Virus record (IMG/VR): IMGVR_UViG_643886067_000001
Coordinates: 1-41,177 of that record
DNA: 41,177 nt
Origin: a virus
Taxonomy: Duplodnaviria; Heunggongvirae; Uroviricota; Caudoviricetes
Reading direction: 5' to 3' (one strand)
Shown piece by piece: positions 13,882 through 41,177 of the stretch. The position numbers were made by a program, and so were the translations under genes. Below the pieces are notes generated by a model. It was not told the DNA's origin. It did no database searches and saw nothing but the letters and a program-made list of their open reading frames with translations. Within the stretch, counting starts at the first letter, position 1. Every line of letters begins with the position of its first letter.

Positions 13882-13957
13882 TGGTGGCCCTTGCTGGATT
13901 TGAACCAGCGACCTGGCGATTATGAGTCGCTCGCTCTCACCACTGAGCTAAAGGGCC
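13882..13957 (-). tRNA. ileZ: tRNA-Ile2 (anticodon CAU, lysidine type; a scanner would call Met)
   Basis: 76 nt; near-identical in pattern to E. coli ileX (GGCCCTTTAGCTCAGTGGT...CTCATAA...TTCAAAT...GGGCCACCA). Confidence 0.8.
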
Positions 13958-13997: not shown

Positions 13998-15056
13998 TCA
14001 TCCGTTCTGACTGGCTAAATCCTGAACTTCCCTGACCGTCTGTTCAAAACGTTCAGTCTCCAGCTCAACGCCTGTAGCACGACGCCCCAGCGCCATCGCG
14101 GCTTTGACTGTCGAACCCGACCCCATGAAGAAATCTGCAACCAGGTCACCCGGACGACTGCTCGCACTGATTATCTGCTGCAGCATTTCTGCCGGTTTTT
14201 CGCACGGATGTTTCCCGGGATAGTACTGCACCGGTTTATGCGTCCACACATCCGTGTACGGCACCTGCGCCGTCACGCCAAAATACCGCCGCAGATGCTT
14301 ATATTCACTCTGCAGTTCCGCATACTGCCGGTTCAGTGAAGTATACGTCTCCAGCAGCTGGTGGTGGGGCTTTTCCAGTTCACCCCGCTGATGCTTCTCT
14401 TCTGCCACCCGGGCAAACAGCGCCTGTAATTTCAGATAATCACTTTCGTTCGGCAGCTGCCACTGACTGGCACTGAACCAGTGCGACACCATGTTTTTCT
14501 TTCCTGTGGCATCCACTATCTGTTTTGCCGTTATCCCCAGGGCAGCGCGCGCATCACGAAAGTAAGCAATCAGCGGGGCCATCACATGCTGTTTCAGTGC
14601 CCTGCCCTTCGCCTCATACCCGGCATCTTTCGGACGATACGGCCCCTGATAATGTTCCGCGAACAGAATGCGCTCTGTGGCGGGGAAATACGCCCGCAGG
14701 CTTTCCTTGTTGCACCCGTTCCAGCGTCCGGACGGCTTTGCCCAGATAATATGGTTCAGCACACTGAAGCGTTCACGCATCATGATTTCGATATCAGATG
14801 CCAGGCGATGACCACAGAACAGGTAAAGACTTCCGGCAGGTTTCAGCACCCGCCAGAACTGCGCCAGACACTGGTCCAGCCACTTCAGGTAATCATCGTC
14901 GCCCTTCCACTGGTTATCCCAGCCCTCAGGCTTCACTTTAAAGTACGGCGGGTCCGTGACTATCAGGTCAACAGAATTTTCGGGTAACGACCGGATAAAT
15001 TCCAGGCAGTCGGCGTTGATTAACTCACAACTGGATATTTTTACAGTATTAAGCAT
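13998..15056 (-). CDS. Orphan DNA methyltransferase (N6-adenine/N4-cytosine class)
   Basis: 352 aa; motif IV TDPPYF near N-terminus and motif I FFMGSGST near C-terminus; no adjacent restriction endonuclease. Confidence 0.85.
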   Translation of the reverse strand: MLNTVKISSCELINADCLEFIRSLPENSVDLIVTDPPYFKVKPEGWDNQWKGDDDYLKWLDQCLAQFWRVLKPAGSLYLFCGHRLASDIEIMMRERFSVLNHIIWAKPSGRWNGCNKESLRAYFPATERILFAEHYQGPYRPKDAGYEAKGRALKQHVMAPLIAYFRDARAALGITAKQIVDATGKKNMVSHWFSASQWQLPNESDYLKLQALFARVAEEKHQRGELEKPHHQLLETYTSLNRQYAELQSEYKHLRRYFGVTAQVPYTDVWTHKPVQYYPGKHPCEKPAEMLQQIISASSRPGDLVADFFMGSGSTVKAAMALGRRATGVELETERFEQTVREVQDLASQNG

Positions 15057-15630: not shown

Positions 15631-16452
15631 CTATCGCGTTACCCTCTTTAACTGCCGCTCCGCCCATGCCTCTTCAATGTCAAACCGAACCACCAACGTA
15701 TCGTAAAAGCGTTTCACTGATTTTTTCCACGTATCAAGCGTGATAGCACTCGTCACTTTGCATATGGCATTAAATGCCTCCGTTGATGGCAGCCTTTCAC
15801 AGCCACGACCACCACAACGCTGGCAATCTCTGATAACAGGCATACCACGTTTTACCGACTCTTCACGATGAATGGCGACACCACGCCCACGGCAATCCTT
15901 ACAGGCGGTGGAAACCTCACCCTTTCCGCCACACTCCGGACAGGCAACTTTTACCACCTCCCTGACTTTTTTCCATTCTTCCCAGTAAGACGGATACACG
16001 CCTTTTGTGCACTTTGCCCACACTGGTGGCTTACCATCCGGATACTGGATCTTGTTTGTAAAAACCTCGCTTTCAATAAATTTTTTTCCGTGACAGCAGG
16101 GGCACTGTTTTTTGCTCGCCGCGCTACGGGCATAATCTTCAAACGCATACGAAGCCATAATGCGCATCACTACCGGTTTTATTTCTGCCGGAAGTTTTCT
16201 CAACGCCGCCACACGATCGCACCGACTGAGTGCATAATCTGCCAGTAATTCTGTTGCCCGCGCCCTGTCATTCATACTGATGCCCATTTTCCCCAGGAAC
16301 GCAGAAAACCCCATCTCAGCCCGATTCTGTGTCATGCCCTGCGCGGCCATCACATCAGTGATACTCAGCGCATCTTTTGACGTTGAGGCCGATGCATCGG
16401 TCAGGCCAGGGGATTTTGGGGAGTAGTATTTCGGTAAATCTTCCAGTTTCAT
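15631..16452 (-). CDS. Late-gene antiterminator Q-like protein (zinc-ribbon type)
   Basis: 273 aa with CPCCHG, CPECGG, CKDCRG, CQRCGG motifs; ATG overlaps rusA stop (ATGA); position between nin genes and late region; resembles QuuQ-type Q proteins (from memory). Confidence 0.65.
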   Translation of the reverse strand: MKLEDLPKYYSPKSPGLTDASASTSKDALSITDVMAAQGMTQNRAEMGFSAFLGKMGISMNDRARATELLADYALSRCDRVAALRKLPAEIKPVVMRIMASYAFEDYARSAASKKQCPCCHGKKFIESEVFTNKIQYPDGKPPVWAKCTKGVYPSYWEEWKKVREVVKVACPECGGKGEVSTACKDCRGRGVAIHREESVKRGMPVIRDCQRCGGRGCERLPSTEAFNAICKVTSAITLDTWKKSVKRFYDTLVVRFDIEEAWAERQLKRVTR

Positions 16453-22113: not shown

Positions 22114-22473
22114 TCAGCCTCCTTTGATGCCCGTGTTTACAACCAGGCAGGCCTCCTTGAGTACCCAGTCAATAGCGTCTTTCCATGCTCCGGTTTCAAC
22201 TGGCGGATCCTCACGCCGTACCTGTTCATAAAAGCGCACAGCTTTAACCAGTCCTTCTGATGTCACCGAAGCTGGCGGGGCCGTGAATAACGCCTGAATT
22301 TCATAGTTTGGTCTGTCGTTACAATCCTCTTTTGTCGGGACATATTTCCAGTCACCAACCCACTGCTTCCCCTGAAAGTCTGTAACGCCTTTTTTCACGT
22401 AGCGATATCGCCATGCCACTGGTTTTGCCTGCCCTACCTTTTCATGCCCTTCCTGATAATTAATCTCGCTCAT
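22114..22473 (-). CDS. Hypothetical protein
   Basis: 119 aa; ATG overlaps stop of upstream small ORF. Confidence 0.5.
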   Translation of the reverse strand: MSEINYQEGHEKVGQAKPVAWRYRYVKKGVTDFQGKQWVGDWKYVPTKEDCNDRPNYEIQALFTAPPASVTSEGLVKAVRFYEQVRREDPPVETGAWKDAIDWVLKEACLVVNTGIKGG

Positions 22474-22646
22474 TCATCGCCCCACTCATCACAATATGCT
22501 TCGACCGGTGTTTTCCCTGCTTCATAATCATCACGCCATGCTTCAGCATCAGCGGCACTTCCACCGCGTAACTCTGCATAATCCATTAACAGTTCATGCC
22601 ATTCTTCAAAACTGGCGTTATATTTAGTTGAACCAAAATCAGCCAT
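22470..22646 (-). CDS. Hypothetical 58-aa acidic protein
   Basis: MADFGSTKYNASFEEWHELLMDYAELRGGSAADAEAWRDDYEAGKTPVEAYCDEWGDE; GGAAGA upstream; ATGA coupling. Not in ORF track. Confidence 0.35.
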   Translation of the reverse strand: MADFGSTKYNASFEEWHELLMDYAELRGGSAADAEAWRDDYEAGKTPVEAYCDEWGDE

Positions 22647-22821
22647 TTTGTTCTTCCTCTTCGTCTTTTATTTCGTGGTATGAGTAATTGCAGTAGTTAA
22701 AGAAAATATCTTTAGCTTCATCCTGTATTTCATCTGGTGTTGCATCATCATCCACTTCGAATTCATCCTCGAAATCTCCACCGGCTATTCCCGTTTCAAT
22801 AATTATTTTGAATTTTCGCAT
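22639..22821 (-). CDS. Hypothetical acidic small protein
   Basis: 60-aa ORF. Confidence 0.3.
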   Translation of the reverse strand: MRKFKIIIETGIAGGDFEDEFEVDDDATPDEIQDEAKDIFFNYCNYSYHEIKDEEEEQNG

Positions 22822-22973
22822 TTCACTACCGCCCTTTCGGACGGCCTCCTGATGTTCTGAGGGTGCAGAAATCCCTCCGGTTAAGGATTTGATTTTATTT
22901 ACAGTGCTAAATTTAATTATTCAGTTCTGGATTTTGTCGCCCTGCATATCCGCGCTTTCGCGTTACGCTCAAT

Positions 22974-23273
22974 CTAAATTAACTTTTCTATATTTTTCCG
23001 CCTTTCCTGTTCCTCCTGGCGCAATAGCCTTACATCATCTGCCAGTCTGGTTTCTCTTTTCGCCACAGAGAGCATCCAGTCAAACGGCTCCACAACTGCA
23101 CCGCAGATTTTACAGCGGACCTGACGCTCTTTTTCGTCAACCCGAACAGAGGCGTGATGACAATATGGTCTTTCCGATGGCTCATAAAGAAAATTAACCT
23201 GATTACGAGGGTCATCCTCTTTTACCGGAAATAAAACGATATTGCTTAACTCATCCTCTGGTTTTATTTCCAT
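22974..23273 (-). CDS. Hypothetical protein
   Basis: 99 aa; CxxC pair (CHH...CKICG). Confidence 0.45.
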   Translation of the reverse strand: MEIKPEDELSNIVLFPVKEDDPRNQVNFLYEPSERPYCHHASVRVDEKERQVRCKICGAVVEPFDWMLSVAKRETRLADDVRLLRQEEQERRKNIEKLI

Positions 23274-23712
23274 GCTCCTCTCCTTTGATGCGAATGCCAG
23301 CGACGCGTAATGCGTGTTCTAAGTCAATCAGGTAAAGCCAACTGCCATTTTCTTTAGGTATCATGACATGTCGCTCATCTGCATTTATCGGGTGTCCATA
23401 TCGAAGGTCGTAGCGAGTCGGTAATTGAACTTCCCGCGCTTCCAGTTCAGCAATACGCTTGCTCCCATCAGAGATAACGCCTTCGTAATACTCACGCTGC
23501 TCGTTGAGTTGTGATTTTGCTTCTTCCAGTCCATCCAGCAAATCAGCGATAATATCCGCTTCCCGATGACGGATGTGACGCTTAAACGCAGCAAGAGCCG
23601 CATCACAATCCCGTTCAGCATTTGGGCTGTCCGGGATAGCCTGATACCACGCCAGCGTCGACTGATAGTTTTGTGCTGCCTCACGAAGCGCCTCATAGTT
23701 AACCTCTCTCAT
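23251..23712 (-). CDS. Hypothetical early-region protein
   Basis: 153 aa. Confidence 0.5.
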   Translation of the reverse strand: MREVNYEALREAAQNYQSTLAWYQAIPDSPNAERDCDAALAAFKRHIRHREADIIADLLDGLEEAKSQLNEQREYYEGVISDGSKRIAELEAREVQLPTRYDLRYGHPINADERHVMIPKENGSWLYLIDLEHALRVAGIRIKGEEHGNKTRG

Positions 23713-24005
23713 TGAGCCACCTCCTGATAAATCACTGCATGCCCCAGTTTCTCCGCCAGTGCCAGCTCTGCCTTAGCGCCCGCTGACCGCTGCCAGCCAT
23801 TCAGCATGTAAATCGCATCCACACAACGAATCATTGCCATGCAAATATCCATGTAGTGCGGCTGTGTCAGCCCGTCCGGAAGTACTGCCGGGTTTAAGAC
23901 GGTATGCCCTTCCCGTTTCAGTTCCTCTTCCGCCTTGTGAAACGCCTCACGGTTGAAATTTTCATATCCCGTCATTGGACCGGCAATATAAACTCTGACC
24001 CTCAC
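23709..24005 (-). CDS. DUF4406-like (nucleoside 2-deoxyribosyltransferase-like fold) protein
   Basis: GTG start at 24005 (AGGAGG 7 nt upstream; GTGA overlap with upstream stop) gives M/V-RVRVYIAGPMTGYENFN, typical N-terminal motif of this family. Confidence 0.5.
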   Translation of the reverse strand: MRVRVYIAGPMTGYENFNREAFHKAEEELKREGHTVLNPAVLPDGLTQPHYMDICMAMIRCVDAIYMLNGWQRSAGAKAELALAEKLGHAVIYQEVAQ

Positions 24006-24394
24006 TCCATCACCTCCTGAAAGTTTCCCCGATAGAACGCCAGCACACGCTGCATAACTTCGCTCTGGCGGCACTCACGACAAATTATGTTCTGCCGTCT
24101 GTTGTAACGACGTATTTCTCCGTCAGGTAACTTTCGAATCAGTGTCGGGTCAGCAGCCTTCTCCGGTGTCTTACGCCATACGCGATACGCCTGCTCTGAT
24201 GGAAATACCCCGCAACCAGAGAGCCAGACATCACCACTGGCCGCAAGCGCACCAGATAAACGACGAATAGCGGTCTTACTGACACCCGTTTTATCTGCCA
24301 GTTGTCGAAAAGTTTCTCGTCCGCTCAGGCGCACGAATTCCACAATGCGCGCCTTCACTTCTTCCCGCTCTTCTGGTGTAAATACTTTTGCCAT
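24002..24394 (-). CDS. Hypothetical protein with putative HTH
   Basis: ATG 24394 with GGAGG upstream; LADKTGVSKTAIRRL HTH-like segment. Confidence 0.5.
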   Translation of the reverse strand: MAKVFTPEEREEVKARIVEFVRLSGRETFRQLADKTGVSKTAIRRLSGALAASGDVWLSGCGVFPSEQAYRVWRKTPEKAADPTLIRKLPDGEIRRYNRRQNIICRECRQSEVMQRVLAFYRGNFQEVME

Positions 24395-24409
24395 AAGCGC
24401 CTCCGGCAA

Positions 24410-25180
24410 TCACTTTTCCGATACAACACGGCGGGAAGAATCAGTAATCTGTCGAACAATATCCCGGTGCTTGTTCACCTCCCGCAGCGCGGCGCAGACT
24501 CGCTCCCACTTCTGAACATCACTTTTCGCCCTGCGCAGCGCCAGGTTTGCCCTGCGAAGGGACGGAAAAATCAGCTCATCTGCTTGCGTTTCGGTAAACG
24601 ATGGCAACGGCTGCACAATGTCCGCCACAGTTTCTGTTTTAATTTCTTCCTGTGTTGCGGCTTCCCGGACTGGTAACGCAGCACCTGCTGGCTGAGGAAA
24701 GGCCTTACCATCACTTTCCGTTACCAGCGCGGCTTTCGGCTCTGCTGGTAAATTATCGCCCGGCATGCAGTAACGAAATTTACCGTTCTGATTAACGCGT
24801 GCCAGCCGCCCCGTTGCGGTTACCACCGCCAGCGTGGAGGCAACCTTGCGAGTACTGACGCCGAACTTACCCGCCAGTTCCTCACACGTTTTAGCACCAT
24901 CCTGACCGATAAACTCAATCATCATGTCTGCGGTAACTTTTTGTTCGACCTCCCCGGTCAGCATATCCTGTGCTTCAGATTTTACTGGCCGCTCTTCGGT
25001 TACCCGGGATTCACCTTCGCCAGCCAGAAACCAGGTGTGACCAGTTTTATCAACGACGCCATTTCTTTTGAGTTCCCACAGCTCGTTGAGAACCTCTTCA
25101 CGACTGATATCAAGTCGCGCGGCCAGTTCTACCGATGTGGCTTTTCCCATTGCTTTCAGTGCGTCAAATACGGTTTCCAT
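24410..25180 (-). CDS. Hypothetical protein with winged-helix-like repeats
   Basis: ATG 25180 with GGAGG 8 nt upstream; track start 25198 is TTG. Confidence 0.5.
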
Positions 25181-25213
25181 TAAAATTTCCTCCGACAAAA
25201 TCGTTTCTCAGAT

Positions 25214-25879
25214 TCAAATAAAACCAGCTGCCTTCCGGCGTTCGTATTCCTGTTTCAGCCGTTCAATTGGCGTTGGCCCTTGCGGGTGTTTCGCCCCTTC
25301 CAGTTGTCGTCGCACTGGCGGAACACTCATCCCGTTACCAACATGCTTTGCCCATTTCGTCAGTTGCCGTTCCGCAAGTCGTTTTAACTCACCCTGCGTC
25401 ATCTGGCGCTCAATCCCTCTGGTACGCATTTCGAGGCAGATGTGGTACAGCACAGGCTGAGGCCACGGATATTTGTCGCTTCCGTCATATCGCCAGGACT
25501 CATCACGCCAGCGGCGGTACTCCTCCATCACAGCATCCACCGTCAGGCCAAATGGATTGGCCCCGCTTTCTGAAATCAGCGCCACAAACTCAGCCAGGTC
25601 CGGAGGCCATGTTTCACCCGCCCGGCAGCGGTCCATGCACTGGCGGCAGACCTGTCGGATTTGCTGCTCAGTCATCGCGCCAATCTGTGCAATCCAGAGC
25701 TTCGAAGGTGCGGCCCCGTTCTTCTGGGTCCAGCGGTTCGAATAAACCTCCCCCATGAGTTCCCACAGCTTCCAGACCGTTTCCGTCGCTGATAAATCCG
25801 TTTTCACGTTCCCACTGCTCACGTGCTGCCCGAATTTCCTGAACTGCCCGTGATGCGGTGCCACCTGGTGCTGCTGCAT
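25214..25879 (-). CDS. Replication protein P-like (helicase loader)
   Basis: 221 aa; colinear similarity to lambda P (AEFVALI, YPWPQPVLYHICLEM, C-terminal basic region); ATG 25879 with GGGGG upstream. Confidence 0.65.
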   Translation of the reverse strand: MQQHQVAPHHGQFRKFGQHVSSGNVKTDLSATETVWKLWELMGEVYSNRWTQKNGAAPSKLWIAQIGAMTEQQIRQVCRQCMDRCRAGETWPPDLAEFVALISESGANPFGLTVDAVMEEYRRWRDESWRYDGSDKYPWPQPVLYHICLEMRTRGIERQMTQGELKRLAERQLTKWAKHVGNGMSVPPVRRQLEGAKHPQGPTPIERLKQEYERRKAAGFI

Positions 25880-26708
25880 GGTTTACCCCCTTGCTGACTG
25901 GCTTAACCTGCGCCCTGACGTGATTTACGTGACGGGCGAATTTCTGCTCCCACTGAACCTGCGTGAAAACTTTCCCCTCCGCTGCCCAGTAGTCCCGGAA
26001 AGCGGCAAGTTCAGCAGGTGTAAATTCCGGCTCCGGCAAAGCCATCCCCCACAACGCAGCCCGTCGTCGAAAATCCGGCGACGGATGCCAGTCATCGACC
26101 ATCGGAAATTTCCCGATGGGTTCGCTCAGTCCATCCAGGGATGCAGGTTCTGCTGCCTGCAACGGCGTACCACTCGACTCACTGGTCGGAGCACTCTCGC
26201 GCACGTGCGCGTTATGTGTGGGGTTTAATTCTTTATCTGTATCTTTATCTGTCGTGACTCGTCGTGACATGTCGTGACATATGCGTGACTCGTCGTGACA
26301 CCCCTCATTCTGTTTTCGTAATTTTTCCCTCTCGCGCTGCGCTCTCTTGCGCTCTGCCGGGGATTTCGCGGTTTGTGAAACGTTGCCATTGTCCTCTTTC
26401 AGTACCTGGCGTTTTTCCCATCCGGTGATTAAATCTCCATCAAGTACCCGCCCCTGCATTGCCTGTAAAATTGAATCAATTACTTCTTCCGTCACATCAA
26501 GCGCACTTGCTAAATCTTCCGTCGTGACATCAATGTGACCACGTAGTGACACGCCGTGACATGTCGTGACATTTCGTGACGCGCTCACCAGAAGGTGGAT
26601 ATACACTGCCATCACTGTTGCAATTGGCTGCCCTGACACCCTGGCAATTGTTCGCCACTTAGGGTCATTTGGCATGTCATGCCATAATCTGAGCCAGGCG
26701 TTAGCCAT
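25668..26708 (-). CDS. Replication initiator O-like protein (3' extent uncertain)
   Basis: ATG 26708 with GAGGTGA upstream; contains two iteron clusters; track frame overlaps the P-like start by ~210 nt. Confidence 0.6.
   Translation of the reverse strand: MANAWLRLWHDMPNDPKWRTIARVSGQPIATVMAVYIHLLVSASRNVTTCHGVSLRGHIDVTTEDLASALDVTEEVIDSILQAMQGRVLDGDLITGWEKRQVLKEDNGNVSQTAKSPAERKRAQREREKLRKQNEGCHDESRICHDMSRRVTTDKDTDKELNPTHNAHVRESAPTSESSGTPLQAAEPASLDGLSEPIGKFPMVDDWHPSPDFRRRAALWGMALPEPEFTPAELAAFRDYWAAEGKVFTQVQWEQKFARHVNHVRAQVKPVSKGVNHAAAPGGTASRAVQEIRAAREQWERENGFISDGNGLEAVGTHGGGLFEPLDPEERGRTFEALDCTDWRDD
26225..26299. repeat. Candidate replication origin: AT-rich tract plus five (T)CGTGAC iterons
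   Basis: TTAATTCTTTATCTGTATCTTTATCT then GTCGTGAC at 26251, 26261, 26271, 26282, 26292 (10-11 bp spacing), inside the O-like gene. Confidence 0.6.
26521..26580. repeat. Second iteron cluster (six CGTGAC-type repeats)
   Basis: Repeats at 26521, 26532, 26543, 26553, 26563, 26573 (10-11 bp spacing), in the N-terminal coding part of the O-like gene. Confidence 0.55.
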
Positions 26709-26779
26709 ACTCACCTCTTCTGATACCGAATCTTTTTACTCACAAATTGCCGGAAGTGATCCGGTATGAATATTGCGAG

Positions 26780-30433: not shown

Positions 30434-32905
30434 ATGAGTAAAGTCTTTATTTGCGCCGCCATTCCGGACGAACAGGCAATAAAGGAAGAAGGTGCAGTCG
30501 CTGTAGCCACTGCCATTGAAGCCGGTGATGAACGTCGCGCCCGCGCAAAATTTCACTGGCAATTCCTGGAACATTATCCGGCTGCTCAGGACTGCGCTTA
30601 TAAATTTATTGTCTGTGAGGATAAACCCGGCATACCCCGCCCTGCCCTCGATTCCTGGGATGCTGAATATATGCAGGAAAACCGCTGGGATGAGGAGTCT
30701 GCTTCCTTTGTCCCGGTTGAGACTGAATCAGATCCGATGAACGTCACTTTTGACAAGTTGGCCCCTGAAGTACAGAACGCTGTCATGGTTAAGTTCGACA
30801 CATGTGAAAACATCACCGTTGATATGGTTATTAGCGCACAGGAATTGTTGCAGGAAGACATGGCAACATTCGACGGACATATCGTTGAAGCGTTGATGAA
30901 AATGCCAGAAGTTAACGCCATGTATCCGGAGCTTAAGCTGCATGCCATCGGGTGGGTTAAGCATAAATGTAAGCCTGGTGCCAAATGGCCCGAAATTCAG
31001 GCAGAGATGCGCATCTGGAAAAAACGTCGCGAAGGTGAACGCAAGGAAACCGGAAAATACACGTCTGTTGTTGATCTCGCCCGCGCCAGAACCAATCAAC
31101 AGCACAGTGAAAATTCAACAGGAAAAATCAGCCCGGTCATTGCTGCCATTCATCGCGAATACAAGCAGACATGGAAAACACTGGATGACGAACTGGCCTA
31201 CGCTCTCTGGCCTGGTGATGTGGATGCCGGAAACATTGACGGCAGCATCCATCGCTGGGCAAAAAATGAAGTTATCGACAACGACCGCGAAGACTGGAAG
31301 CGTATCTCGGCATCAATGCGCAAACAGCCTGATGCCCTTCGCTACGACCGCCAGACTATTTTTGGCCTTGTCCGTGAACGTCCGATCGACATTCACAAAG
31401 ACCCTGTGGCACTGAACAAATACATTACTGAATACCTGACTACAAAGGGCGTGTTTGAAGATGAAGGAAGAAATCAGAGCGCAACTGATACTCTCTCGTC
31501 GCCAGTACCAGAAACTGATGCAGTGGAAACGGCAATGCCGGACAACGAAAAAACCGAATGCGAAGTGGAAGACGAACCATCTGTAGAGCGTGAGGGACCG
31601 TTCTACTTCCTTTTCACCGATAAGGACGGCGAAAAATACGGTCGCGCAAACAAACTTTCTGGTCTGGAAAAAGCACTGGCCCTGGGAGCTACGGAAATCA
31701 CAAAAGAGGAATACTTCGCACGTAAAAACGGCACGTACTCTGGTTCACAACAAAATACTGGTGCATCTGACACGATCGCACAACCAGAGCCGGTAAAAGT
31801 TACCGCTGACGAAGTAAACAAAATTATGCAGGCAGCCAATATCAGCCAGCCTGACGCCAATAAGTTGCTTGCTGTATCACGTGGTGAATTTGTTGCAGGG
31901 ATTAGCGACCCGAATGATCCGAAATGGGTGAAGGGGATTGAAACCCGCGATTCAGTGAATCAGAACCAGCAAGAAACGGAACAGAACGGCCAGAAAGCGG
32001 AACAAAACAGCCCAAATGCGTTACAAAACGAGCCAGAAACGAAACAGCCTGAACCAGTGGCGCAACAGGAAGTGGAAAAAGTCTGCACCGCCTGCGGTCA
32101 GACCGGCGGCGGCAACTGCCCTGATTGTGGCGCGGTGATGGGCGACGCAACATACCAGGAAACATTCGATGAAGAGTATCAGGTTGAAGTTCAGGAAGAT
32201 GATCCGGAGGAAATGGAAGGCGCTGAACATCCACACAAGGAGAACACTGACGGCAATCAGCATCACGATAGCGATAATGAAACTGGCGAGACGGCAGATC
32301 ACTCAATTAAGGTGAACGGTCATCAAGAAATCACATCCACCAGCAGGACGTGTGACCATCTAATGATCGACCTTGAAACCATGGGAAAAAATCCTGATGC
32401 CCCGATCATCTCAATAGGTGCAATATTTTTCGATCCGCAAACCGGAGATATGGGACCGGAATTTAGTAAGACTATCGATCTGGAAACTGCTGGCGGGGTC
32501 ATTGATCGGGACACCATTAAATGGTGGCTTAAGCAATCACGCGAAGCGCAATCTGCCATTATGACCGATGAAATCCCGTTAGATGATGCACTGTTACAAT
32601 TGCGGGAATTTATCGACGAAAACTCCGGTGAATTTTTTGTTCAGGTCTGGGGAAATGGAGCCAACTTCGACAACACGATTTTGCGCCGTTCATACGAACG
32701 GCAGGGGATCCCCTGCCCGTGGCGTTACTACAACGATCGCGATGTACGCACAATCGTTGAGCTGGGGAAAGCCATAGACTTCGATGCCAGAACGGCTATT
32801 CCATTCGAAGGTGAGCGCCATAATGCACTTGATGACGCCCGTTACCAGGCAAAATACGTTTCAGTTATCTGGCAAAAACTGATCCCGAATCAGGCTGATT
32901 TTTAA
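30434..32905 (+). CDS. RecE-like large protein with acidic N-terminal region, central zinc ribbon and C-terminal DEDDh (DnaQ-like) 3'-5' exonuclease domain
   Basis: 823 aa; CTACGQTGGGNCPDCG; exonuclease motifs IDLETMG, GNGANFDNTIL, HNALDDARYQ; sits where recE/exo lies in Rac-type prophages, with no recT/bet-like neighbour. Confidence 0.7.
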   Translation: MSKVFICAAIPDEQAIKEEGAVAVATAIEAGDERRARAKFHWQFLEHYPAAQDCAYKFIVCEDKPGIPRPALDSWDAEYMQENRWDEESASFVPVETESDPMNVTFDKLAPEVQNAVMVKFDTCENITVDMVISAQELLQEDMATFDGHIVEALMKMPEVNAMYPELKLHAIGWVKHKCKPGAKWPEIQAEMRIWKKRREGERKETGKYTSVVDLARARTNQQHSENSTGKISPVIAAIHREYKQTWKTLDDELAYALWPGDVDAGNIDGSIHRWAKNEVIDNDREDWKRISASMRKQPDALRYDRQTIFGLVRERPIDIHKDPVALNKYITEYLTTKGVFEDEGRNQSATDTLSSPVPETDAVETAMPDNEKTECEVEDEPSVEREGPFYFLFTDKDGEKYGRANKLSGLEKALALGATEITKEEYFARKNGTYSGSQQNTGASDTIAQPEPVKVTADEVNKIMQAANISQPDANKLLAVSRGEFVAGISDPNDPKWVKGIETRDSVNQNQQETEQNGQKAEQNSPNALQNEPETKQPEPVAQQEVEKVCTACGQTGGGNCPDCGAVMGDATYQETFDEEYQVEVQEDDPEEMEGAEHPHKENTDGNQHHDSDNETGETADHSIKVNGHQEITSTSRTCDHLMIDLETMGKNPDAPIISIGAIFFDPQTGDMGPEFSKTIDLETAGGVIDRDTIKWWLKQSREAQSAIMTDEIPLDDALLQLREFIDENSGEFFVQVWGNGANFDNTILRRSYERQGIPCPWRYYNDRDVRTIVELGKAIDFDARTAIPFEGERHNALDDARYQAKYVSVIWQKLIPNQADF

Positions 32906-32969: not shown

Positions 32970-33218
32970 ATGGCAAGACTTATTCTGCTCACTGAGTGGG
33001 CAAAAGAGGAATTCAGTGAACCGGTCCCAACTCCGAGTACGTTAAGTAAATACGCTAAAGCCGGAATGATATTTCCTCTCCCCAAAAAAGTTGGAAGACG
33101 CTGGCGAGTGGATCCGCAAGCTCGCTTTGTCGGAATGGTAAACAAGCCGGAGGTGATCGCCACAGATCACCCTGCTTTGAAGAGGATACTGGAAGATGGC
33201 GCGCCCGCGAAAATATAA
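32970..33218 (+). CDS. xis: Excisionase (Xis)
   Basis: 82 aa; overlaps integrase start; lambda-Xis-like pattern. Confidence 0.7.
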   Translation: MARLILLTEWAKEEFSEPVPTPSTLSKYAKAGMIFPLPKKVGRRWRVDPQARFVGMVNKPEVIATDHPALKRILEDGAPAKI

Positions 33219-34326
33219 AACCGATGTTCCGGGATTATCTCCGTATTTTGACAAAAGAAATAACAAAGTTTACTGGCGTTACAGGCATCCCATAACAGGC
33301 AAAAATCACGGTCTCGGCAGTATTGACCAGAAACTGGCAGAAACTATTGCAGCAGAAGCGAACAGCCGTCTTGCCCGGCAGCAAATGGAACAAATGCTCA
33401 GTCTGCAGGAGAAAATTATTAGTGATACCGGCGGTTCATCAACCGTTACCATTTTTCTGAATAATTACAGAAAAATTCAACAGGAAAGATATGAAAACGG
33501 CGAGATCAAACTCAACACGCTGAAACAGAAAGCGGCCCCTCTCAGGGTATTTGATGAACGTTTTGGCACCAGACCGTTAGATGCCATAACCGTAAAAGAT
33601 GTGGTATCAGTACTGGAAGAGTACAAGGCCAGAGGACATAACAGAATGGGACAAATTTTCAGGAAAGTACTGATCGATGTTTTCCGGGAAGCTCAGCAAA
33701 CGGGCGATGTCCCGCCAGGCTTTAACCCTGCAGAATCGGCAAAAAAACCGCAGGTGCGGATATCAAGACAGCGACTGACTTTTGATGAGTGGATGATGAT
33801 TTATAACGCAGCGGAAAAGGATGGTTACTTTTTACAGCGCGGTATGCTGCTGGCACTGATGACAGGCCAGCGCCTTTCAGATATTTGCAAAATGCAATTT
33901 TCGGATATCCGGGATGGTTATCTTCATGTCGAACAGCAAAAAACAGGAACCCGGATTGCCATCCCTCTGGCTCTGCGTTGCGATAAATTAAATCTCACCC
34001 TGGATGATGTAGTGTCATCCTGCCGCGATTGCGTTCTTAGTCCGTGGCTATTGCACCACCATCACGCGAAAGGGACAGCTAAGCGCGGCGGGATGGTTAA
34101 GCCAGCAACATTAACCGTTGCATTTAAAAAAGCCCGGGATTCTGTGGATTACAACTGGCGTGCTAATGGCACCCCACCCTCTTTCCATGAGCAGAGATCT
34201 TTATCAGAGCGATTGTTCAGAGAGCAGGGGGTTGATACCAAAATTTTGCTGGGCCATTCGAATCAAAAAATGACCGATATTTACAACGACGCACGCGGTA
34301 AGGAATGGAAAAAACTGGTCATTTGA
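33196..34326 (+). CDS. int: Tyrosine integrase (lambda Int family)
   Basis: 376 aa; N-terminal arm-binding-like MARPRKYKTDVPGLSPYFDKRNNKVYWRYRHPITGK; C-terminal catalytic region (LLGHSNQKMTDIYN). Confidence 0.9.
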   Translation: MARPRKYKTDVPGLSPYFDKRNNKVYWRYRHPITGKNHGLGSIDQKLAETIAAEANSRLARQQMEQMLSLQEKIISDTGGSSTVTIFLNNYRKIQQERYENGEIKLNTLKQKAAPLRVFDERFGTRPLDAITVKDVVSVLEEYKARGHNRMGQIFRKVLIDVFREAQQTGDVPPGFNPAESAKKPQVRISRQRLTFDEWMMIYNAAEKDGYFLQRGMLLALMTGQRLSDICKMQFSDIRDGYLHVEQQKTGTRIAIPLALRCDKLNLTLDDVVSSCRDCVLSPWLLHHHHAKGTAKRGGMVKPATLTVAFKKARDSVDYNWRANGTPPSFHEQRSLSERLFREQGVDTKILLGHSNQKMTDIYNDARGKEWKKLVI

Positions 34327-34367: not shown

Positions 34368-34371
34368 AAAA

Positions 34372-34497
34372 TTAAAAACGATATCCTGCGGAGAACATAA
34401 ACACCCACGGATCCAGTCGTACCGAGTCTTTTACGGTAGTAACACCAGATTTGTACTTAGCCGTGGTATCGATATCCATGTACCAGACCGTCATGCC
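34372..34497 (-). pseudogene. OmpW 3'-end fragment (about the last 40 codons), probably phage-borne copy of the attachment region
   Basis: Minus frame encodes ...TVWYMDIDTTAKYKSGVTTVKDSVRLDPWVFMFSAGYRF-stop, matching the OmpW C-terminus; no upstream ompW sequence present. Confidence 0.55.
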
Positions 34498-35776
34498 GGC
34501 TTTCATCCGGTAACCGGGCATTCGCACGGGTGGCATCCAGTGAAACAGCGCCCAGCCAGCCCATGTTTTTACCCACCCCCAGATTGAAGGCACGGTAGCG
34601 TTCAGCTATCCAGGCTCCTCCATACACCGTCCAGCCTGCCGGCAGACCATACTTCAGCGTTCCTTCAGCAAAACGGGGATTATCCTGCTGATGTCCGCCA
34701 CTGCGAAACTCTCCGGCACTGAGAGCATATTTCAGATGCCCTTCACGTTGCAGTACAGGCACCGAAGACCATGGCACATTAAATCGCTGTACACTGCCAT
34801 CAGCTTCCTGCAGGGTTACCTGTAAGTCACCTCCACTCCCGGCCGGATAAATATCGTTTATCTCGAACGGGCCTGGAGGTAGCGTACTCTGGTAAATTTC
34901 ATACCCGTTCTGGCGGATACTAATCCGGGATGTTCCCCGGGAAATACCGTGAATTGTCGGTGCATACCCTCTCTGGCTGTCCGGAACCATATTGTCATCA
35001 GAGGCCAGTTGAATCCCCCTGAAATTTACACCGTCAAAAATATCCCCCCGGGTATAACTGTCCCCCATCGTCAGACGGGAGCGCAGGGAAACTATATCCC
35101 GCTCCAGCCAGGTGTTAATGTGCTGCCAGTTATTCTGGCTGTACCCCTTTCCGGCACTGTAACTCCAGCTGGTGTTGTCCCGAAGACGCCAGCTCCCGAT
35201 ATTCAGTCCTGTTTTCAGATTCAGATAGGCATAATCGCTGGTGCCACCATAGCTGTCGCGCACCCGATTACCACTGAAGTCATAATTCAGCAATGCCGCT
35301 GTAATTCCGTTATCCCAGTATTCCGGCGCAATATAACCACGGGCCTGATTACTCATATATAACTGAGGAACGGTCAGGTACAATCGCTGCTGCCCGACAT
35401 CAAACCGGAATGTGGCACCCTGAATCATGGAATTCAGTGATGTGCAGGTGTCAGCCGGCAGTCTCTCCATACCCGGCACGGCATAACGGTTTACCCCCAT
35501 CGCACTCATATGCTCCGGACTCAGGCAGGGGGCAAGTTGCTTCCCGTCCTGACTCATCTGAAACTGCACGTCACGGGTTGAGATATACGTATCATTCAGA
35601 TAAATATCCACCCGGTACACGCCTGGCGGAAGCTCCTGCCCCTGTGTAAATGCAGACAGGTCCGCAACCGCATCCGGGTCATCAGACAGAAAACGCGGAT
35701 TAAAATAGAGCTCAGCCCGGGCCGGAGAAACAATTATCCCGATAAAAAATGCCAGCGGCAGTATATTAAATTTCAT
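34490..35776 (-). pseudogene. Fimbrial usher (FimD/SfaF/FocD-like), N-terminal ~430 aa only, truncated at the prophage junction
   Basis: Signal peptide MKFNILPLAFFIGIIVSPARA then strong colinear usher similarity (ELYFNPRFLSDDP...YRAFNLGVGKNMG...LPDESRHDG); usher similarity ends at ~34490, frame stops at 34457. Confidence 0.7.
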
Positions 35777-35920
35777 TCTGTTATTACCCCCGCCAGCAGA
35801 GCCGGTCAGTGATTTATCAGACAGGAGCTGTCCGCCATCTCCGAAAAACATGTCAGCCCCCACACTGAGCGAAAAAATAAAATCAGCAGCCAAACACAAC
35901 CAGTACCAGAAATAACTGAG

Positions 35921-36616
35921 TTACTTCACAACACCCTTCACCTGTTCAGTCAGAGCACCATAATCGTTAATTGTTTTATAAGTAATATCTCCTCCGGTGT
36001 ATCCTCCAGGGATATTCACAGTGACCTTTCCCTGTGGGGGTACCATGGTGTTTTCAAGACTTTTATTTCCGGCCTTTAAGTCAGTCACTGTCAGATAATA
36101 CGGCGTCGGATTAAACAGAGTCAGCCCTCCGTTTTCACGGGTGAACTCTAATTTACCCGGTGCCTGTTCTGGCGGAATAACCAGTCCCTGTGGACGGTAG
36201 AGCAGTTTAATTCTGCTGACAATTGCAAACTGCAGATAATTCTCGCCGGTTTTCGCCTTATCCATGGCCGGGATGGCCTTGACATTCACCCAGAACAAAC
36301 TTTCCCTGTCTTCCGGCATCTGTCCGTTTGTGGCATCAATAATTCTCAGGGTATTCTCTTTCTTTCCCTGCATGGAAAATAACGGAGGAGTAATTACAAA
36401 CCGGGCATCCTTTTTTCCCTCAGCATTTTCAATCCATGACTGAATAAGGTAACTACTTTTATCATCATTATTTGTTACCGCCAGTTGTACCTGTTTTTGC
36501 CCTTCAGGGTAAATCACACGGGTGGCCCCCAGAGCAACCCCGGCATAGCTCTGCGGAATATAAAAAAAGACTAAAAATGATGCCAGAACGGCCCATATAC
36601 GCATGTGCTTCATCAT
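35921..36616 (-). CDS. Fimbrial periplasmic chaperone (PapD/FimC family)
   Basis: 231 aa; signal peptide; GVALGATRVIYPEG...LIQSWIEN...RESLFWVNVKAIP motifs. Confidence 0.85.
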   Translation of the reverse strand: MMKHMRIWAVLASFLVFFYIPQSYAGVALGATRVIYPEGQKQVQLAVTNNDDKSSYLIQSWIENAEGKKDARFVITPPLFSMQGKKENTLRIIDATNGQMPEDRESLFWVNVKAIPAMDKAKTGENYLQFAIVSRIKLLYRPQGLVIPPEQAPGKLEFTRENGGLTLFNPTPYYLTVTDLKAGNKSLENTMVPPQGKVTVNIPGGYTGGDITYKTINDYGALTEQVKGVVK

Positions 36617-36656
36617 GTTATTAACAGCCTTAATTAAATGGCGTTATATCTGCCAG

Positions 36657-37205
36657 TTACAGATAGGTCAGAGAAAACCATACCTGTCCATTTGCCTTTC
36701 CCCCGGTGACGGGATAATGTGTGGCCTTATACCTCGCCTGCATATGCAGTTTCATATCTCCGCGGGTAAGATGCACCCAGTTCTCCGGAGGCTGATTAAG
36801 TTTTACCAGCTCTCCGCTTTCATTAAATAAAGCGATAGCGATTCCGTCTGAGGCATCATTCTCCTCATCCACCGACAGCAACTCCGGCTCGTGAATATCT
36901 GACACGCCATAAAAGGAAATCCCCACCCGCTGACTGACGACAGTGCTGCAGCCCTGAAGGTGAATATCAAAGCCCACAGAGTCCCCATACTCACCGGCGG
37001 CGTGAAATCGATTGCTGCTAAGTTGCCCCATATCCACAGTCATCTGCCTGTCTGACAGGGCAAGACTGCATGCTTCAGCAATTATTTTTCCCTGGAAGCG
37101 CATGTTTCCTCCCGGAAGCATGACATGCCAGTGGTTTCCGGCCAGTGCAGCGGGAGACAGCAAAAATAACATTATTGCCATTTTCGATATTTTCATTAAT
37201 CTCAC
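36657..37205 (-). CDS. Fimbrial minor subunit (FimI-like)
   Basis: 182 aa; signal peptide; fimbrin-like with conserved Cys pair and C-terminal beta-strand. Confidence 0.7.
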   Translation of the reverse strand: MRLMKISKMAIMLFLLSPAALAGNHWHVMLPGGNMRFQGKIIAEACSLALSDRQMTVDMGQLSSNRFHAAGEYGDSVGFDIHLQGCSTVVSQRVGISFYGVSDIHEPELLSVDEENDASDGIAIALFNESGELVKLNQPPENWVHLTRGDMKLHMQARYKATHYPVTGGKANGQVWFSLTYL

Positions 37206-37266
37206 ACCCGCATGGATAAAAACAGCCCTCCCTGGCCGGGTATATATCCGTTACACTGTTCTGATA

Positions 37267-37809
37267 TTACTGGTACTGAACTTTAAAGGTGGCGTCGGCG
37301 TTGGCAATACCAGCAGTGGCCTGTCCAGTTGCGTAGTAAACCGCCTGAAATGGAATTTTGTTGGTTCCGTCAGTTAATGTAAACGTTGAGCTTGCAGTTC
37401 CATCTAAAGGTACAACCTTGCCGGTATGGTCAGTAATCTGAACGCCGACGTTTGTTGCAGAACCCGCTGCAGAACTTTGTAAAGCAAGAACATCTGTTTT
37501 ACCAGTAACTGCTGGGCCTGAAAAGACAATTCCTGCACCAGCAGACACCTGCGAGTCACAATCATTTAATTCAATTGTAAATCCAACTGGATTGCTTTTA
37601 GCTCCATCTACTTTCAATCTTTCGGAACGAACCTGTCCAAGATTAACCGTCTGATCGAATGAGTTAGTGTTTACAGCACATGCAGCATTAACCACTTCAC
37701 CCTTAAAATGAACTGTACCACCATTAACCGTGGTGACAGCAGACGCATTTGTTGCAACACCCAGGGTCAGAGCTGAAAATACAGCCATGGAGATGAATTT
37801 TAACTTCAT
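37267..37809 (-). CDS. Major fimbrial subunit, S/F1C-type (SfaA/FocA-like)
   Basis: 180 aa; signal peptide [24 protein letters not shown]; FimA-family core; C-terminal ...ATFKVQYQ. Confidence 0.85.
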
Positions 37810-38180
37810 ATTTAATTCCTGTTTTTAATTGAACTACGCACACCGTATCTGTCATCACAACAGACACAATCAATATCCCGAACGACGGGAATCTTTTTTC
37901 AGGAGAACTTCATAAATGCAATGTGAGAAATACACTCAGGCAGCATTTATGACATTATCTCCCGATAATATTTTCCGGTTAACCGACAGGAATCTTCTCT
38001 ATAGATAAGATTCCCTGGATGATAAGCTATGAGTTAGCACTCCTGTCTCCACACTGAATGCTTTAGCAAAAGCAGAGAATGAAAGCATGCCTCGTTGATA
38101 ATACCCGCACTCTCATTTGACTGCAGGCTTATATTTCTCGCGTATTATGTATTGCCCCGGCGTTTTTTATTGTCCGTATT

Positions 38181-38510
38181 TTACAGGGAAGCAGCTTCAG
38201 CTATAGCTGATACACTATCAGTATAATAAGGAGCAAGTCTGGCAACGAGGACATTCAACCTGGTAAGGCGCCCAAGCGTTGTACTGAAATATCCATTATT
38301 CATCTGGTATTTCTCGCAGACATCTTTACGGGAATGACCACTGACCAGATAATCCTTCATAGCGAGAATAACTCTGTCACTGTGAATAGAGGAAATACCT
38401 ATCAGTAAAAAAAATTGTTCTTCAGACATGGAGCCGGATGACAGCGCGCTCTCACGTAATTTTAGTAAAAAAGCATCCCCTCCCCGGGTAATAACTTCAT
38501 GCTGTGCCAT
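38181..38510 (-). CDS. PapB/SfaB/FocB-family fimbrial regulator
   Basis: 109 aa MAQHEVITRGGDAFLLKLRES...FFLLIGISSIHSDRVILAMKDYLVSGHSRKDVCEKYQMNNGYFSTTLGRL closely matches PapB-family pattern. Confidence 0.8.
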   Translation of the reverse strand: MAQHEVITRGGDAFLLKLRESALSSGSMSEEQFFLLIGISSIHSDRVILAMKDYLVSGHSRKDVCEKYQMNNGYFSTTLGRLTRLNVLVARLAPYYTDSVSAIAEAASL

Positions 38511-38625
38511 TCGATACTCCCCACCCCGCCACCTACAGGGCTGCCTTAATATTCATCCCCCATACAGGAGGGCCTGGCTCCTTAAGATATATTTAGTTTT
38601 TTATGTTGTAAACATGTATTTTGAC

Positions 38626-38731
38626 GATCTTTTGATCTGTAAAGCTGTTTATTTTTAGGGTTACATCTTGCAATGGATTAGTGTTTTAGTGATTAATGCT
38701 GCATAAGAATTAATATTCAGTATAAAAGATC
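38626..38731. promoter_or_regulatory. Pap-like Dam/Lrp phase-variation switch (two GATC sites 102 bp apart)
   Basis: GATC at 38626-29 (acGATCtttt) and 38728-31 (aaaGATCgtt) in the intergenic region between divergent papB-like and papI-like genes; further GATC at 38634 and 38858. Confidence 0.6.
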
Positions 38732-38928
38732 GTTAAAATCGTTTTTTGCAACGTTCCTTACCATTGAAAAAACTATAAAAATAATGTGATAGAAATCCAA
38801 TCGTGAATATGTTTCGCATATTAAGTAAATACACCAAATACAATATAAAAACATGATGATCACATTTGAATTGTCAAAAACAAGTCAGCCACTTATTATC
38901 CTTTTGCTTATATAGAGAGGATGATGAT

Positions 38929-39150
38929 ATGCAGAATGAAATAATGGGTTTTCTGAGCAGACATAATGGAGGGAAAACCGCAGAAATTGCGGAGGCGCTG
39001 GCGGTAACGGATTACCAGGCACGCTATTACCTGTTATTACTGGAAAAAGAAGGTATGGTTCAGCGCTCTCCGTTAAGACGAGGCATGGCAACATACTGGT
39101 TTCTGAAAGGAGAGATGCAGGCGGGACAGAGCTGTTCTTCCACAACTTAA
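38929..39150 (+). CDS. PapI/SfaC/FocI-family fimbrial regulator
   Basis: 73 aa [61 protein letters not shown]; GAGGA upstream. Confidence 0.8.
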
Positions 39151-39341
39151 TAACTCAGTTTGTGGGCATGCTTCACTGAAACAGATAAAAGTTACATCAG
39201 AGTGCAGATTCAATTTTGCAGCATTCGTCACAAAATAAAAATCCAGCATTTTATGTCAGAATACCTCACATGATAATAAAACCTGTCCGGTTTTACTGCA
39301 TGGCCAGACATTATACAAAAGCAAATCCTGTAAACTCCATT

Positions 39342-39378
39342 CAGCCTCCTTGCTATCCGGTAACGGAGGCTGTTTTTT
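39342..39378 (+). terminator. Intrinsic terminator-like hairpin
   Basis: CAGCCTCC-ttgctatccggtaac-GGAGGCTG followed by TTTTTT. Confidence 0.4.
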
Positions 39379-39424
39379 CGTTACGCCTTTCCCCGGCAGC
39401 ATCAGTAGCAGTAATTTATAGATT

Positions 39425-40003
39425 CTACGAACTGAGACTGTCTGTCCGGGGAGAACATACGTAACCCGGCGCAAGGCTCCTGTCAATTACCTCCGGCCTC
39501 TGCTCCCTTGGTTGCCAGACAGAGTCTCTGACGACCATGCTTTCAGTGTCAGCGCCAGTGATATAAGACGGTAAATGGGGATGCGGACGATTTCCTGTAT
39601 CACGTCTGTTGGCGCTTAGCCTCAGAATATCCACCACCAGACGCTGACTGTCTGACCAAAACAGGCCGTTCAGTGCGATCACCTGCAATCCCGTTTCCAG
39701 CGCATACTTCAGTCGTTCACGGGGCGCTTTCACTTCCCGGGCAATTTGCTGCCATGGCGATGATGTATTTTCACTCCCAACCATCCGGCGAATACGATGA
39801 GACAGATGATACCGGAATATATCCGGCACACCAGAAAGACTGGCTTTCAGGCTGTACACGCAGCCAAACCGTTTATCGTTGAACACCACATTTTTCTGGC
39901 TGATATCCCATGCTTCCCGAAGTGTAACAATCAGCTGTGGCGTCCGGGTTAAAAGCAGACGAAAAGGCAGTTCAAAACTGGTGACGTAATCCACATTCAG
40001 CAA
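39425..40003 (-). CDS. Hypothetical protein, possibly distal fragment of a disrupted gene
   Basis: 192-aa ORF; out of frame with the ORF at 40236-40748; no family recognised. Confidence 0.3.
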   Translation of the reverse strand: MLNVDYVTSFELPFRLLLTRTPQLIVTLREAWDISQKNVVFNDKRFGCVYSLKASLSGVPDIFRYHLSHRIRRMVGSENTSSPWQQIAREVKAPRERLKYALETGLQVIALNGLFWSDSQRLVVDILRLSANRRDTGNRPHPHLPSYITGADTESMVVRDSVWQPREQRPEVIDRSLAPGYVCSPRTDSLSS

Positions 40004-40235
40004 TGTAATATGCAGCCGTTCTTCTGCCCCGCCTCAGTCTGCCGACACTCCTCCAGGACATCCTGCCACTGCTGGCGAAGACGTGAGGATTAATTCCGCC
40101 AAGGTAAAACAGTATTTATCCGCCATAGAGTCAATTCGTGTACACATACTGAAAAGAATTCCGTATAAAGATTCAGCAGACAAAACTTTATCAGTCTGTA
40201 AAAATTAACGGAAGAGTTGATATTTCTCCCGATCA

Positions 40236-40748
40236 TCACCGGATAATTGTTGCAATAACCAGTGGCATCAGAGACTGAACAGCTGTTTTTAACGCAACGT
40301 ATTGCTCTGATGTATCAGGCCGGGTAACCCGAAAACACCTTTCCACCCGACATTGTCCGCCAGCGTTTATCCCCCGCCAGGCCTGCTGCAGTAAATCCAC
40401 CACTTGCGAACATTCTTCATCAACTGTGGCACTGACCCGCAGATGGCAAATGCTCGCCTGGCTGAGCAGCAACAGGCATCGTATTGTTGCTCCTCCATGT
40501 TGTTCCCGCAACCAGCGTAATACCACCGGCGGTGCTGGACTGGCAGTGTGATTACGCTCAGTAATATGTTCTTGCACCTGTCGGTAAAAGGCAGTACAGA
40601 ATGCATGAATCTGTTGCCCGTTGATGTTTCCTTCTGCCGAATGGAGTGTGAAGTAAAATGCCAGCAAATGCGGCCAGTGGTCCACCGCCTGCTGAACAAA
40701 ACGCCGGATGTCTCCCGGCTCTGAAATTAAGGCTTCGGTTATTTGCAC
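40236..40748 (-). CDS. Hypothetical protein, possibly proximal fragment of a disrupted gene
   Basis: 170-aa ORF; followed by a 230-nt gap then a second ORF in another frame. Confidence 0.3.
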   Translation of the reverse strand: MQITEALISEPGDIRRFVQQAVDHWPHLLAFYFTLHSAEGNINGQQIHAFCTAFYRQVQEHITERNHTASPAPPVVLRWLREQHGGATIRCLLLLSQASICHLRVSATVDEECSQVVDLLQQAWRGINAGGQCRVERCFRVTRPDTSEQYVALKTAVQSLMPLVIATIIR

Positions 40749-41177
40749 GAAATCTTCCTTTTCAAACCCTGTTGGATTTTGTCAAGCCGGTGCAGACACA
40801 GTAAAGCGCGCATCAACACCTGAAAGGTACGATACAAACACAAGTTACAAACAATAAGAACGGAAGGACAATTAATCAGTGAGGAATAATAACTAAATTA
40901 ACCAAAAGAATGTTACTGACAATACCACCAATACTTAAATAGCAATATATTAATTAATGTAAGAACAGATGCCCGGTAAGACATATACACAATACATCCA
41001 CAAACACACTCTTTTCATTAAATAAATCACCTGATTAAACCATGAAAGTGTGATGTAAGTCAAAATTACTGACACAATCAATTGATAATGATTATCTCTA
41101 TCATTATCGTGATATTCGAGAATGAAAGGAGAAGTAGTCATTATAAGCCTTTTATAAATCGTCATCATCATAGTAAA

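Follow-up and report, generated by a model that had tools for sequence, protein, structure and literature searches.

The locus analysed here raises the question of whether a fimbrial regulatory region that borders a prophage-truncated operon carries a DNA-methylation switch of the Pap type, and whether such a switch would still operate. The window, that is, the whole stretch of DNA analysed (41,177 nucleotides, IMG/VR record IMGVR_UViG_643886067_000001), includes a gap between two divergent regulator genes for which a sequence-only reading had proposed a Dam/Lrp epigenetic switch. In the pap operon, Lrp has six binding sites, and the two GATC sequences lie in sites 2 and 5. The promoter is blocked by Lrp at sites 1-3, PapI moves Lrp to sites 4-6, each state is locked via Dam methylation of the unoccupied site, and activation and feedback come from CRP and PapB (PMC11316696, PMC9820224). 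The signature of the family is a pair of GATC boxes at 102 bp together with a PapI-like protein (PMC2909390).

Positions 34486-41177 are the promoter-proximal part of the Escherichia coli F1C (foc) fimbrial cluster, with 100% identity over 6.7 kb to complete genomes that include UPEC132, CU39ES-1, and 18AR0366. Identical loci are annotated with the sfaF/FocD usher, the SfaE/FocC chaperone, the SfaD minor subunit, the FocA major subunit, the S/F1C operon regulator, and sfaC; by this DNA identity, both the foc gene order downstream of focB and the FocA major subunit are present. The genes of the locus and the region between the two regulators are as follows.

34457-35851, minus strand: truncated usher gene focD', 455 of 876 residues plus 9 foreign residues
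35921-36616, minus strand: focC/sfaE, periplasmic chaperone, from the annotation of identical loci
36657-37205, minus strand: sfaD-type minor subunit, from the annotation of identical loci
37267-37809, minus strand: focA, F1C major subunit, RefSeq focA at the identical locus and a FimA-type pilin by NCBIfam
38181-38510, minus strand: focB/sfaB, PapB-family regulator and first gene of the operon, Pfam PapB E 6.8e-37
38511-38928, no strand: focB-sfaC intergenic regulatory region, very likely holding the switch, 418 bp, 32.5% G+C against 50.0% for the whole window
38929-39150, plus strand: sfaC, foc homologue of PapI, 73 aa, Lrp co-regulator, Pfam FaeA/PapI E 6.8e-30

Three elements of the sequence-only reading are borne out by this inventory. 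The flanking genes described there as PapI-like and PapB-like belong to those families by their Pfam matches and are divergent, the AT-rich gap estimated at about 420 bp has the length and composition given above, and the operon called truncated is indeed so, since focD matches intact FocD over 455 of its 876 residues and then continues through 9 foreign codons to a stop.

Both local regulator genes, focB and sfaC, are full length and intact. FocB shows 100% identity to the protein of the FocB crystal structure (PDB 3M8J) and 81.6% identity to PapB of strain S88, and SfaC aligns over residues 1-73 with the NMR structure of PapI (PDB 2HTJ) and is 89% identical to S88 PapI. In RefSeq, sfaC is modelled as a 94-aa product from a TTG at 38866, a start that lies 21 codons beyond the Met1 of PapI in the 2HTJ alignment, and this model engulfs the predicted sfaC promoter at 38871-38899. 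The 73-aa product from the ATG at 38929 is the more likely of the two, and the 94-aa model is probably too long. Past sfaC lie a truncated ECs1377-family gene (39425-40003, minus strand), which the RefSeq records of relatives annotate as a pseudogene with a frameshift, and a conserved hypothetical gene (40236-40748, minus strand). In UPEC132, the same island runs on into the microcin genes mcmA and mchF, and the foc cluster therefore belongs to the microcin/F1C island type.

A 970-bp regulatory module (38181-39150), comprising focB, the intergenic region, and sfaC, matches the foc loci of at least 10 complete E. coli genomes at 100% identity; strains with complete operons carry the identical module. 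The 418-bp intergenic region is likewise 100% identical to the foc loci of UPEC132, A0 34/86, NCTC9022, and others. The elements located in or predicted for it are listed below.

38584-38612, minus strand: predicted sigma-70 focBA promoter from a consensus scan, TTTACA / 17-nt spacer / TATCTT, 14 bp from the proximal GATC
38605-38752, no strand: imperfect inverted repeat with 29-nt arms (38605-38633 and 38724-38752), 79% complementary, 90-nt spacer
38624-38633, plus strand: promoter-proximal GATC box ACGATCTTTT, GATC at 38626-38629, equivalent of pap GATCprox / Lrp site 2, invariant in 8 family members
38634-38637, no strand: third GATC, context GACGATCTTTTGATCTG, 8 bp to the distal side of GATCprox, specific to foc/sfa
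38724-38733, minus strand: distal GATC box ACGATCTTTT, GATC at 38728-38731, equivalent of pap GATCdist / Lrp site 5
38785-38800, no strand: CRP-like site TGTGATAGAAATCCAA, 80% identical to pap, with T..GA.A...ATC.AA kept in 8 family members
38858-38861, no strand: fourth GATC, just upstream of the predicted sfaC promoter, variable
38871-38899, plus strand: predicted sfaC promoter from a consensus scan, TTGTCA / 17-nt spacer / TATTAT, 10/12 matches

GATC sites had been noticed at 38626 and 38728, 102 bp apart, and both the positions and the start-to-start spacing are correct; the region holds four such sites, however, those at 38634 and 38858 having been overlooked. The shared context (A/C)GATC(T/G)TT attributed to the pair is literally right; a better description is that the 10-mer ACGATCTTTT occurs here twice, in inverted orientation. 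Exact copies of ACGATCTTTT occur in the 41-kb window at these two places only, against a chance expectation of about 0.08 (2 x 41177 / 4^10). The four GATCs in 418 bp compare with 0.95 expected from the density of the window (94 per 41177; Poisson P about 0.016). The window as a whole is poor in GATC, with 94 sites against 156 +/- 10 in dinucleotide-preserving shuffles, and the prophage contains GATC-free stretches of several kilobases (for example, 22210-26757 and 10948-13255), in contrast to the four sites of the switch region.

The two boxes form the inner ends of the inverted-repeat arms, and a weaker extension of the repeat reaches out to 38587 and 38782. Each box includes the hexamer ACGATC within its exact ACGATCTTTT copy, on the plus strand at 38624 and on the minus strand at 38733. 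According to work of Hernday and colleagues dating from 2003, this hexamer is reportedly needed for PapI-dependent binding of Lrp.

Transcription of focBA would start near 38577, about 7 nt past the -10 element of the predicted promoter. With a start at about that position, the CRP-like site would be centred at about -215.5, the proximal GATC at about -50, and the distal GATC at about -152; the position of CAP at pap is said to be -215.5 (Weyand and colleagues, 2001). The switch region shows no enrichment of the generic Lrp SELEX consensus YAGHAWATTWTDCTR, which gives 3-mismatch hits only there; across the window, 64 matches were counted against 51.5 expected, and this consensus is thus non-discriminating.

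The relationship to pap was examined in a three-way alignment of the window, the foc region of CFT073, and the papI-papB region of S88. Both GATCs of the window pair coincide with the two GATCs of pap, and the alignment is free of gaps between them. Identity between foc and pap across the entire intergenic region is about 48% and is concentrated in three islands.

38581-38633: predicted promoter and proximal box, foc-pap identity 75-100%
38711-38740: distal box, foc-pap identity 80%
38781-38800: CRP-like site TGTGATAGAAATCCAA, foc-pap identity 80%
Remainder of the intergenic region: foc-pap identity 30-50%

Within the first island, the block 38591-38610 around the focBA promoter is 100% identical to pap. 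The proposal of a pap-type switch, for which alignment to pap had been named as a check, therefore holds at the level of alignment, with both boxes, their spacing, the promoter block, and the CRP-like site conserved. The two systems share divergent PapI (89%) and PapB (82%) homologues, inverted ACGATCTTTT boxes 102 bp apart, the identical promoter block, and a CRP-like site at an equal distance. They differ in that pap has two GATCs, whereas foc has four, and in that a perfect tandem repeat with a 9-bp unit, AGCAAACAC x 4.2, lies upstream of papI in pap alone. Tandem Repeats Finder, which detected the pap repeat, found no 9-bp repeat of the PapB type in foc. We take the pap repeat AGCAAACAC to be the high-affinity site of PapB (PapB site 1); its absence from foc means that operator usage by FocB may differ.

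The spacing of the boxes was then followed through the family, the PapI-like gene, and not a DNA motif, serving as the anchor for collecting relatives. The 102-bp GATC pair is present in sfaI, sfaII, a third sfa-like variant (strain DEF2), pap, afa-3, an operon of an O170 plasmid, and a fae-like operon of pSE11-3. An eight-way alignment leaves ACGATCTTT and ATAAAAGATCG, the latter covering the distal box and invariant across the 8 family members, as the sole long stretches without variation. The skeleton of the CRP-like site is likewise kept, and this site, located between the distal box and sfaC, is conserved, at the sequence level, with pap and six other operons.

The sfa loci are the nearest relatives. 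FocB has the same sequence as SfaB from the sfaI locus, the SfaC proteins match completely or almost completely, and the intergenic region has the same length of 418 bp, is 96-97% identical, and holds the same three GATCs (the proximal, the one 8 bp from it, and the distal) with the 102-bp spacing. The differences are in the major subunit, which is SfaA in place of FocA, in 14-16 substitutions located chiefly in the spacer between the boxes, and in the fourth GATC of foc (38858), which sfaI and sfaII lack. The afa/daa, fae-like, and other plasmid operons of the PapI/PapB type also have PapI- and PapB-family genes and GATC boxes at 102 bp, but their PapI homologues are 40-50% identical and their intergenic lengths vary, reaching 801 bp in afa-3. 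Some relatives are without the signature, as in an S. salamae plasmid, where the spacing is 160 bp, and a TL-14 plasmid with a single GATC.

Metagenomic PapI-family loci extend this pattern. The set comprised the 71 loci that had enough upstream sequence, with 54 distinct upstream sequences among them, and in 69 of the 71 loci the distance between the boxes is exactly 102 bp. The remaining two are pap-type alleles with a proximal GATC mutated to GATA. In both (L189 and L191), about 310 bp upstream of papI, the box ACGATCTTTT has become ACGATATTTT and the Dam site is lost; the pap model predicts that such copies can neither enter nor maintain the ON state. A comparison of 19 distinct foc/sfa-type alleles shows zero indels across 38584-38928, and variable columns account for 21/73 positions of the spacer against 4/54 and 3/42 in the box regions. 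The same pattern of a variable spacer and quiet boxes is also seen with 5 alleles. Since indels are absent while the spacer drifts, the spacing is conserved and the spacer sequence is free to change, a combination that a constraint of helical phase or of protein bridging predicts.

A pattern scan of GTDB genomes (CGATCTTTT-N(80-100)-AAAAGATCG) was set aside as a source for the distribution of spacings in the family, as it gave mostly chance hits; the spacings listed spread over 92-112 with no peak at 102, and among the matches listed, a homologue of FocB or SfaC lies nearby in 2 of 120 loci. Two genome contigs (L056 and L093) are of separate interest. One locus, in Edwardsiella hoshinae, has a 102-bp GATC-box pair beside a FocB homologue (49% identical), and another has a 103-bp pair beside a SfaC homologue (44% identical). 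The two loci suggest Pap-type switches outside Escherichia and Salmonella.

The third GATC is a feature of the foc region with no counterpart in pap. GATC 38634 is found in foc, sfaI, sfaII, and the DEF2 variant and is missing from pap, afa, and the relatives on plasmids. All 19 distinct foc/sfa alleles that were compared retain it, and the segment 38619-38643 is without a variable column. No mention of this extra foc/sfa-specific site was traced in the literature accessible to search. The fourth GATC, at 38858, is present in foc and DEF2 alleles and absent from sfaI and sfaII, and columns 38858 and 38859 are variable. GATC 38634 could provide a second methyl input to the proximal site, one that pap lacks.

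It is conceivable that the region is a working switch whose properties are unlike those of pap owing to GATC 38634 and the missing 9-bp PapB repeat, the possible differences being in switching rates or in a need for double methylation at the proximal site. The presence of GATC 38634 in all 19 distinct foc/sfa alleles and in none of the pap-type loci speaks for this view, as does the confinement of the 9-bp repeat to pap; yet GATC 38634 may be a neutral lineage marker within a block that is conserved for other reasons, and we regard such a departure from pap behaviour as possible but somewhat unlikely. The extra GATCs and the missing repeat are not in conflict with membership of the Pap family and may reflect tuning of the switch.

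The second part of the question concerns the interruption of the operon. The complete foc operon is not present, as focD ends at residue 455 and focF/G/H, sfaY, and sfaX are absent from the window. To the left of 34486 the DNA is a lambdoid prophage with the following features.

259-1623: portal protein
1835-3856: major head protein
3837-5498: large terminase
10015-11976: NanS-p-like esterase (DUF1737 + SASA + DUF6645)
13705-13957: tRNA genes Met/Arg/Arg
13998-15056, minus strand: beta-class DNA methyltransferase, 352 aa, with the motifs DPPY and FxGxG and a match to Pfam N6_N4_Mtase
15631-16452: Q antiterminator
25668-26714: replication protein
30434-32905: RecE-like exonuclease
Upstream of the integrase gene: excisionase (xis)
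33196-34326, plus strand: lambda-type integrase (int) of the prophage that interrupts focD, Pfam Arm-DNA-bind_1 and Phage_integrase
34486-34494, no strand: focD-prophage junction, a 9-bp sequence GACCGTCAT common to both sides, inside which the change from phage to focD falls

The int-proximal arm of the prophage ends in a 125-bp mimic of the 3' end of ompW (34370-34494), which is 81% identical to K-12 ompW. Among complete E. coli genomes, the same arm adjoins ompW-family genes in more than 1600 and focD in none. IMG/VR contigs with this arm are of two kinds, those that run into ompW (attL) and those that run into AT-rich phage DNA (attP), and the attP and attL contigs part from each other within the same 9 bases as the junction. 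The 9-base stretch would thus be the core of the att crossover, and the prophage most plausibly entered focD by integrase-mediated insertion into a secondary att site. The junction is absent from all 5,426 complete genomes examined, with no complete E. coli genome spanning it, and the exact 37-mer of the focD/prophage junction gave zero matches in metagenome and viral contigs. The other end of the prophage is outside the window.

The methyltransferase gene of this prophage deserves mention beside a methylation-dependent switch. Its product is 98.9% identical to the enzyme of phage 1720a-02, which is listed in PMC5778455 as closely resembling M.EcoGII, an adenine methyltransferase of no sequence specificity. 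A role as a second Dam was considered and rejected, the enzyme being of the beta-class N6_N4, M.EcoGII type and not of the Dam family. If expressed, it would methylate the GATCs of the switch without Dam; enzymes of the M.EcoGII type are reportedly silent in lysogens. The segment 10015-16452 (minus strand), with Q, the methyltransferase, tRNA-Met/Arg/Arg, and the NanS-p-like esterase, has the order of the late region of Stx2-converting phages, and the best matches of the methyltransferase are in Stx2a phages, one of them named PPompW. Carriage of stx was also rejected, there being no stx-sized ORF between the tRNAs and the esterase gene; a 167-aa ORF (13103-13606) occupies part of this interval.

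A prophage in the usher gene admits a more elaborate arrangement, in which two switches would be stacked, one of the Dam/Lrp kind at the promoter and the other a reversible insertion of the prophage in focD. We consider this unlikely. Were it true, precise excision could restore focD and the assembly of F1C fimbriae, comparable to 'active lysogeny', the orphaned switch would keep FocB phase-variable and hence maintain cross-talk with other fimbrial operons, and the usher-less output of subunits may feed back via envelope stress.

The same interruption could instead have left the switch a dead relic, the operon having been inactivated by the prophage and the regulatory region, released from selection, no longer working. 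The cut of focD at codon 455/876 and the lack of focF/G/H, sfaY, and sfaX in the window are what such a history would leave. Against it stand zero substitutions in 970 bp relative to strains with intact operons, the full-length focB and sfaC, and the clean junction with its 9-bp microhomology, which is unique among the 5,426 complete genomes; a clean and unique junction indicates a recent insertion, with no decay visible. A relic is, on these grounds, very improbable.

For the nature of the switch itself, the most direct guide is sfa. Papers that cite van der Woude & Low 1994 (Mol Microbiol 11:605) attribute to it that sfa is under Lrp/Dam phase variation (PMC12388093 ref 48, PMC9820224), and mutually exclusive ON/OFF methylation of the GATCs and dependence on Dam, Lrp, and a PapI homologue are reported for sfa and pap (PMC12388093 ref 48, PMC9820224, PMC11316696). 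The direct Dam/Lrp experiments that can be cited thus concern sfa, with its 96-97% identical region, and pap, foc being assigned from its sequence. No foc-specific methylation study was found in the literature that could be searched. This absence, and reviews that describe control of sfa by SfaB/SfaC and through H-NS derepression (PMC12388093), might be taken to mean that the GATCs and their spacing are coincidental or simply inherited and that foc is governed mainly by H-NS, CRP, and FocB/SfaC as ordinary transcription factors, with no heritable methylation states, but this reading is very improbable, given that the boxes are the sole invariant blocks across operons otherwise 30-50% identical, that the distance is 102 bp in 69 of 71 loci and free of indels though the spacer is the most variable segment, and that the citing papers report Lrp/Dam phase variation for sfa.

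The region is therefore, with high confidence, the native foc regulatory region and a bona fide Dam/Lrp epigenetic phase-variation switch of the Pap family. Since sfa is 96-97% identical and shares FocB/SfaB, SfaC, and three GATCs, the interpretation as a switch is correct and was already known; the sfa/foc Lrp/Dam switch has been known for three decades (sfa was published in 1994), and it is textbook material and no new biology.

By homology with pap and sfa, the switch would operate as follows. In the OFF state, Lrp on the promoter-proximal sites around GATC 38626 would block the focBA promoter and shield this GATC from Dam, while GATC 38728 would be methylated. After replication, SfaC, as the PapI homologue, would aid the shift of Lrp to the distal sites around GATC 38728. 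The proximal GATC would then be methylated by Dam and, with CRP bound upstream, focBA would be transcribed; FocB would stimulate sfaC and so lock the ON state. The binding of Lrp, SfaC, and CRP, the differential methylation, and the switching itself are thus put forward for this strain on the model of its relatives. The genes dam, lrp, and crp are host genes that lie outside the window.

The feedback loop of the Pap type needs just the cis region, the PapB and PapI homologues, and host Dam, Lrp, and CRP. Because the locally encoded parts are intact and match their counterparts in strains whose operons are complete at 100% identity, the switch is expected to toggle here, and we consider it likely that it still does so in this strain. 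Its output would be crippled, as the halving of the usher gene focD by the prophage leaves no fimbriae; ON cells would make FocB, FocA, the SfaD minor subunit, and the FocC chaperone, but not the fimbriae themselves. Phosphorylated CpxR is said to compete with Lrp at pap and so to bias the switch to OFF (Hernday and colleagues, 2004). By that competition, a build-up of usher-less subunits in ON cells might drive this copy towards OFF, which we offer as a prediction.

The case indicates that a reader of sequence alone is able to recognise a Pap-type epigenetic switch. At the scale of the family, it adds support in the form of a 102-bp spacing that is conserved while the sequence of the spacer drifts. 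At the scale of the organism, a strain whose switch has been disconnected by a prophage from the assembly of fimbriae would offer a natural test bed for the output of FocB in cross-talk.
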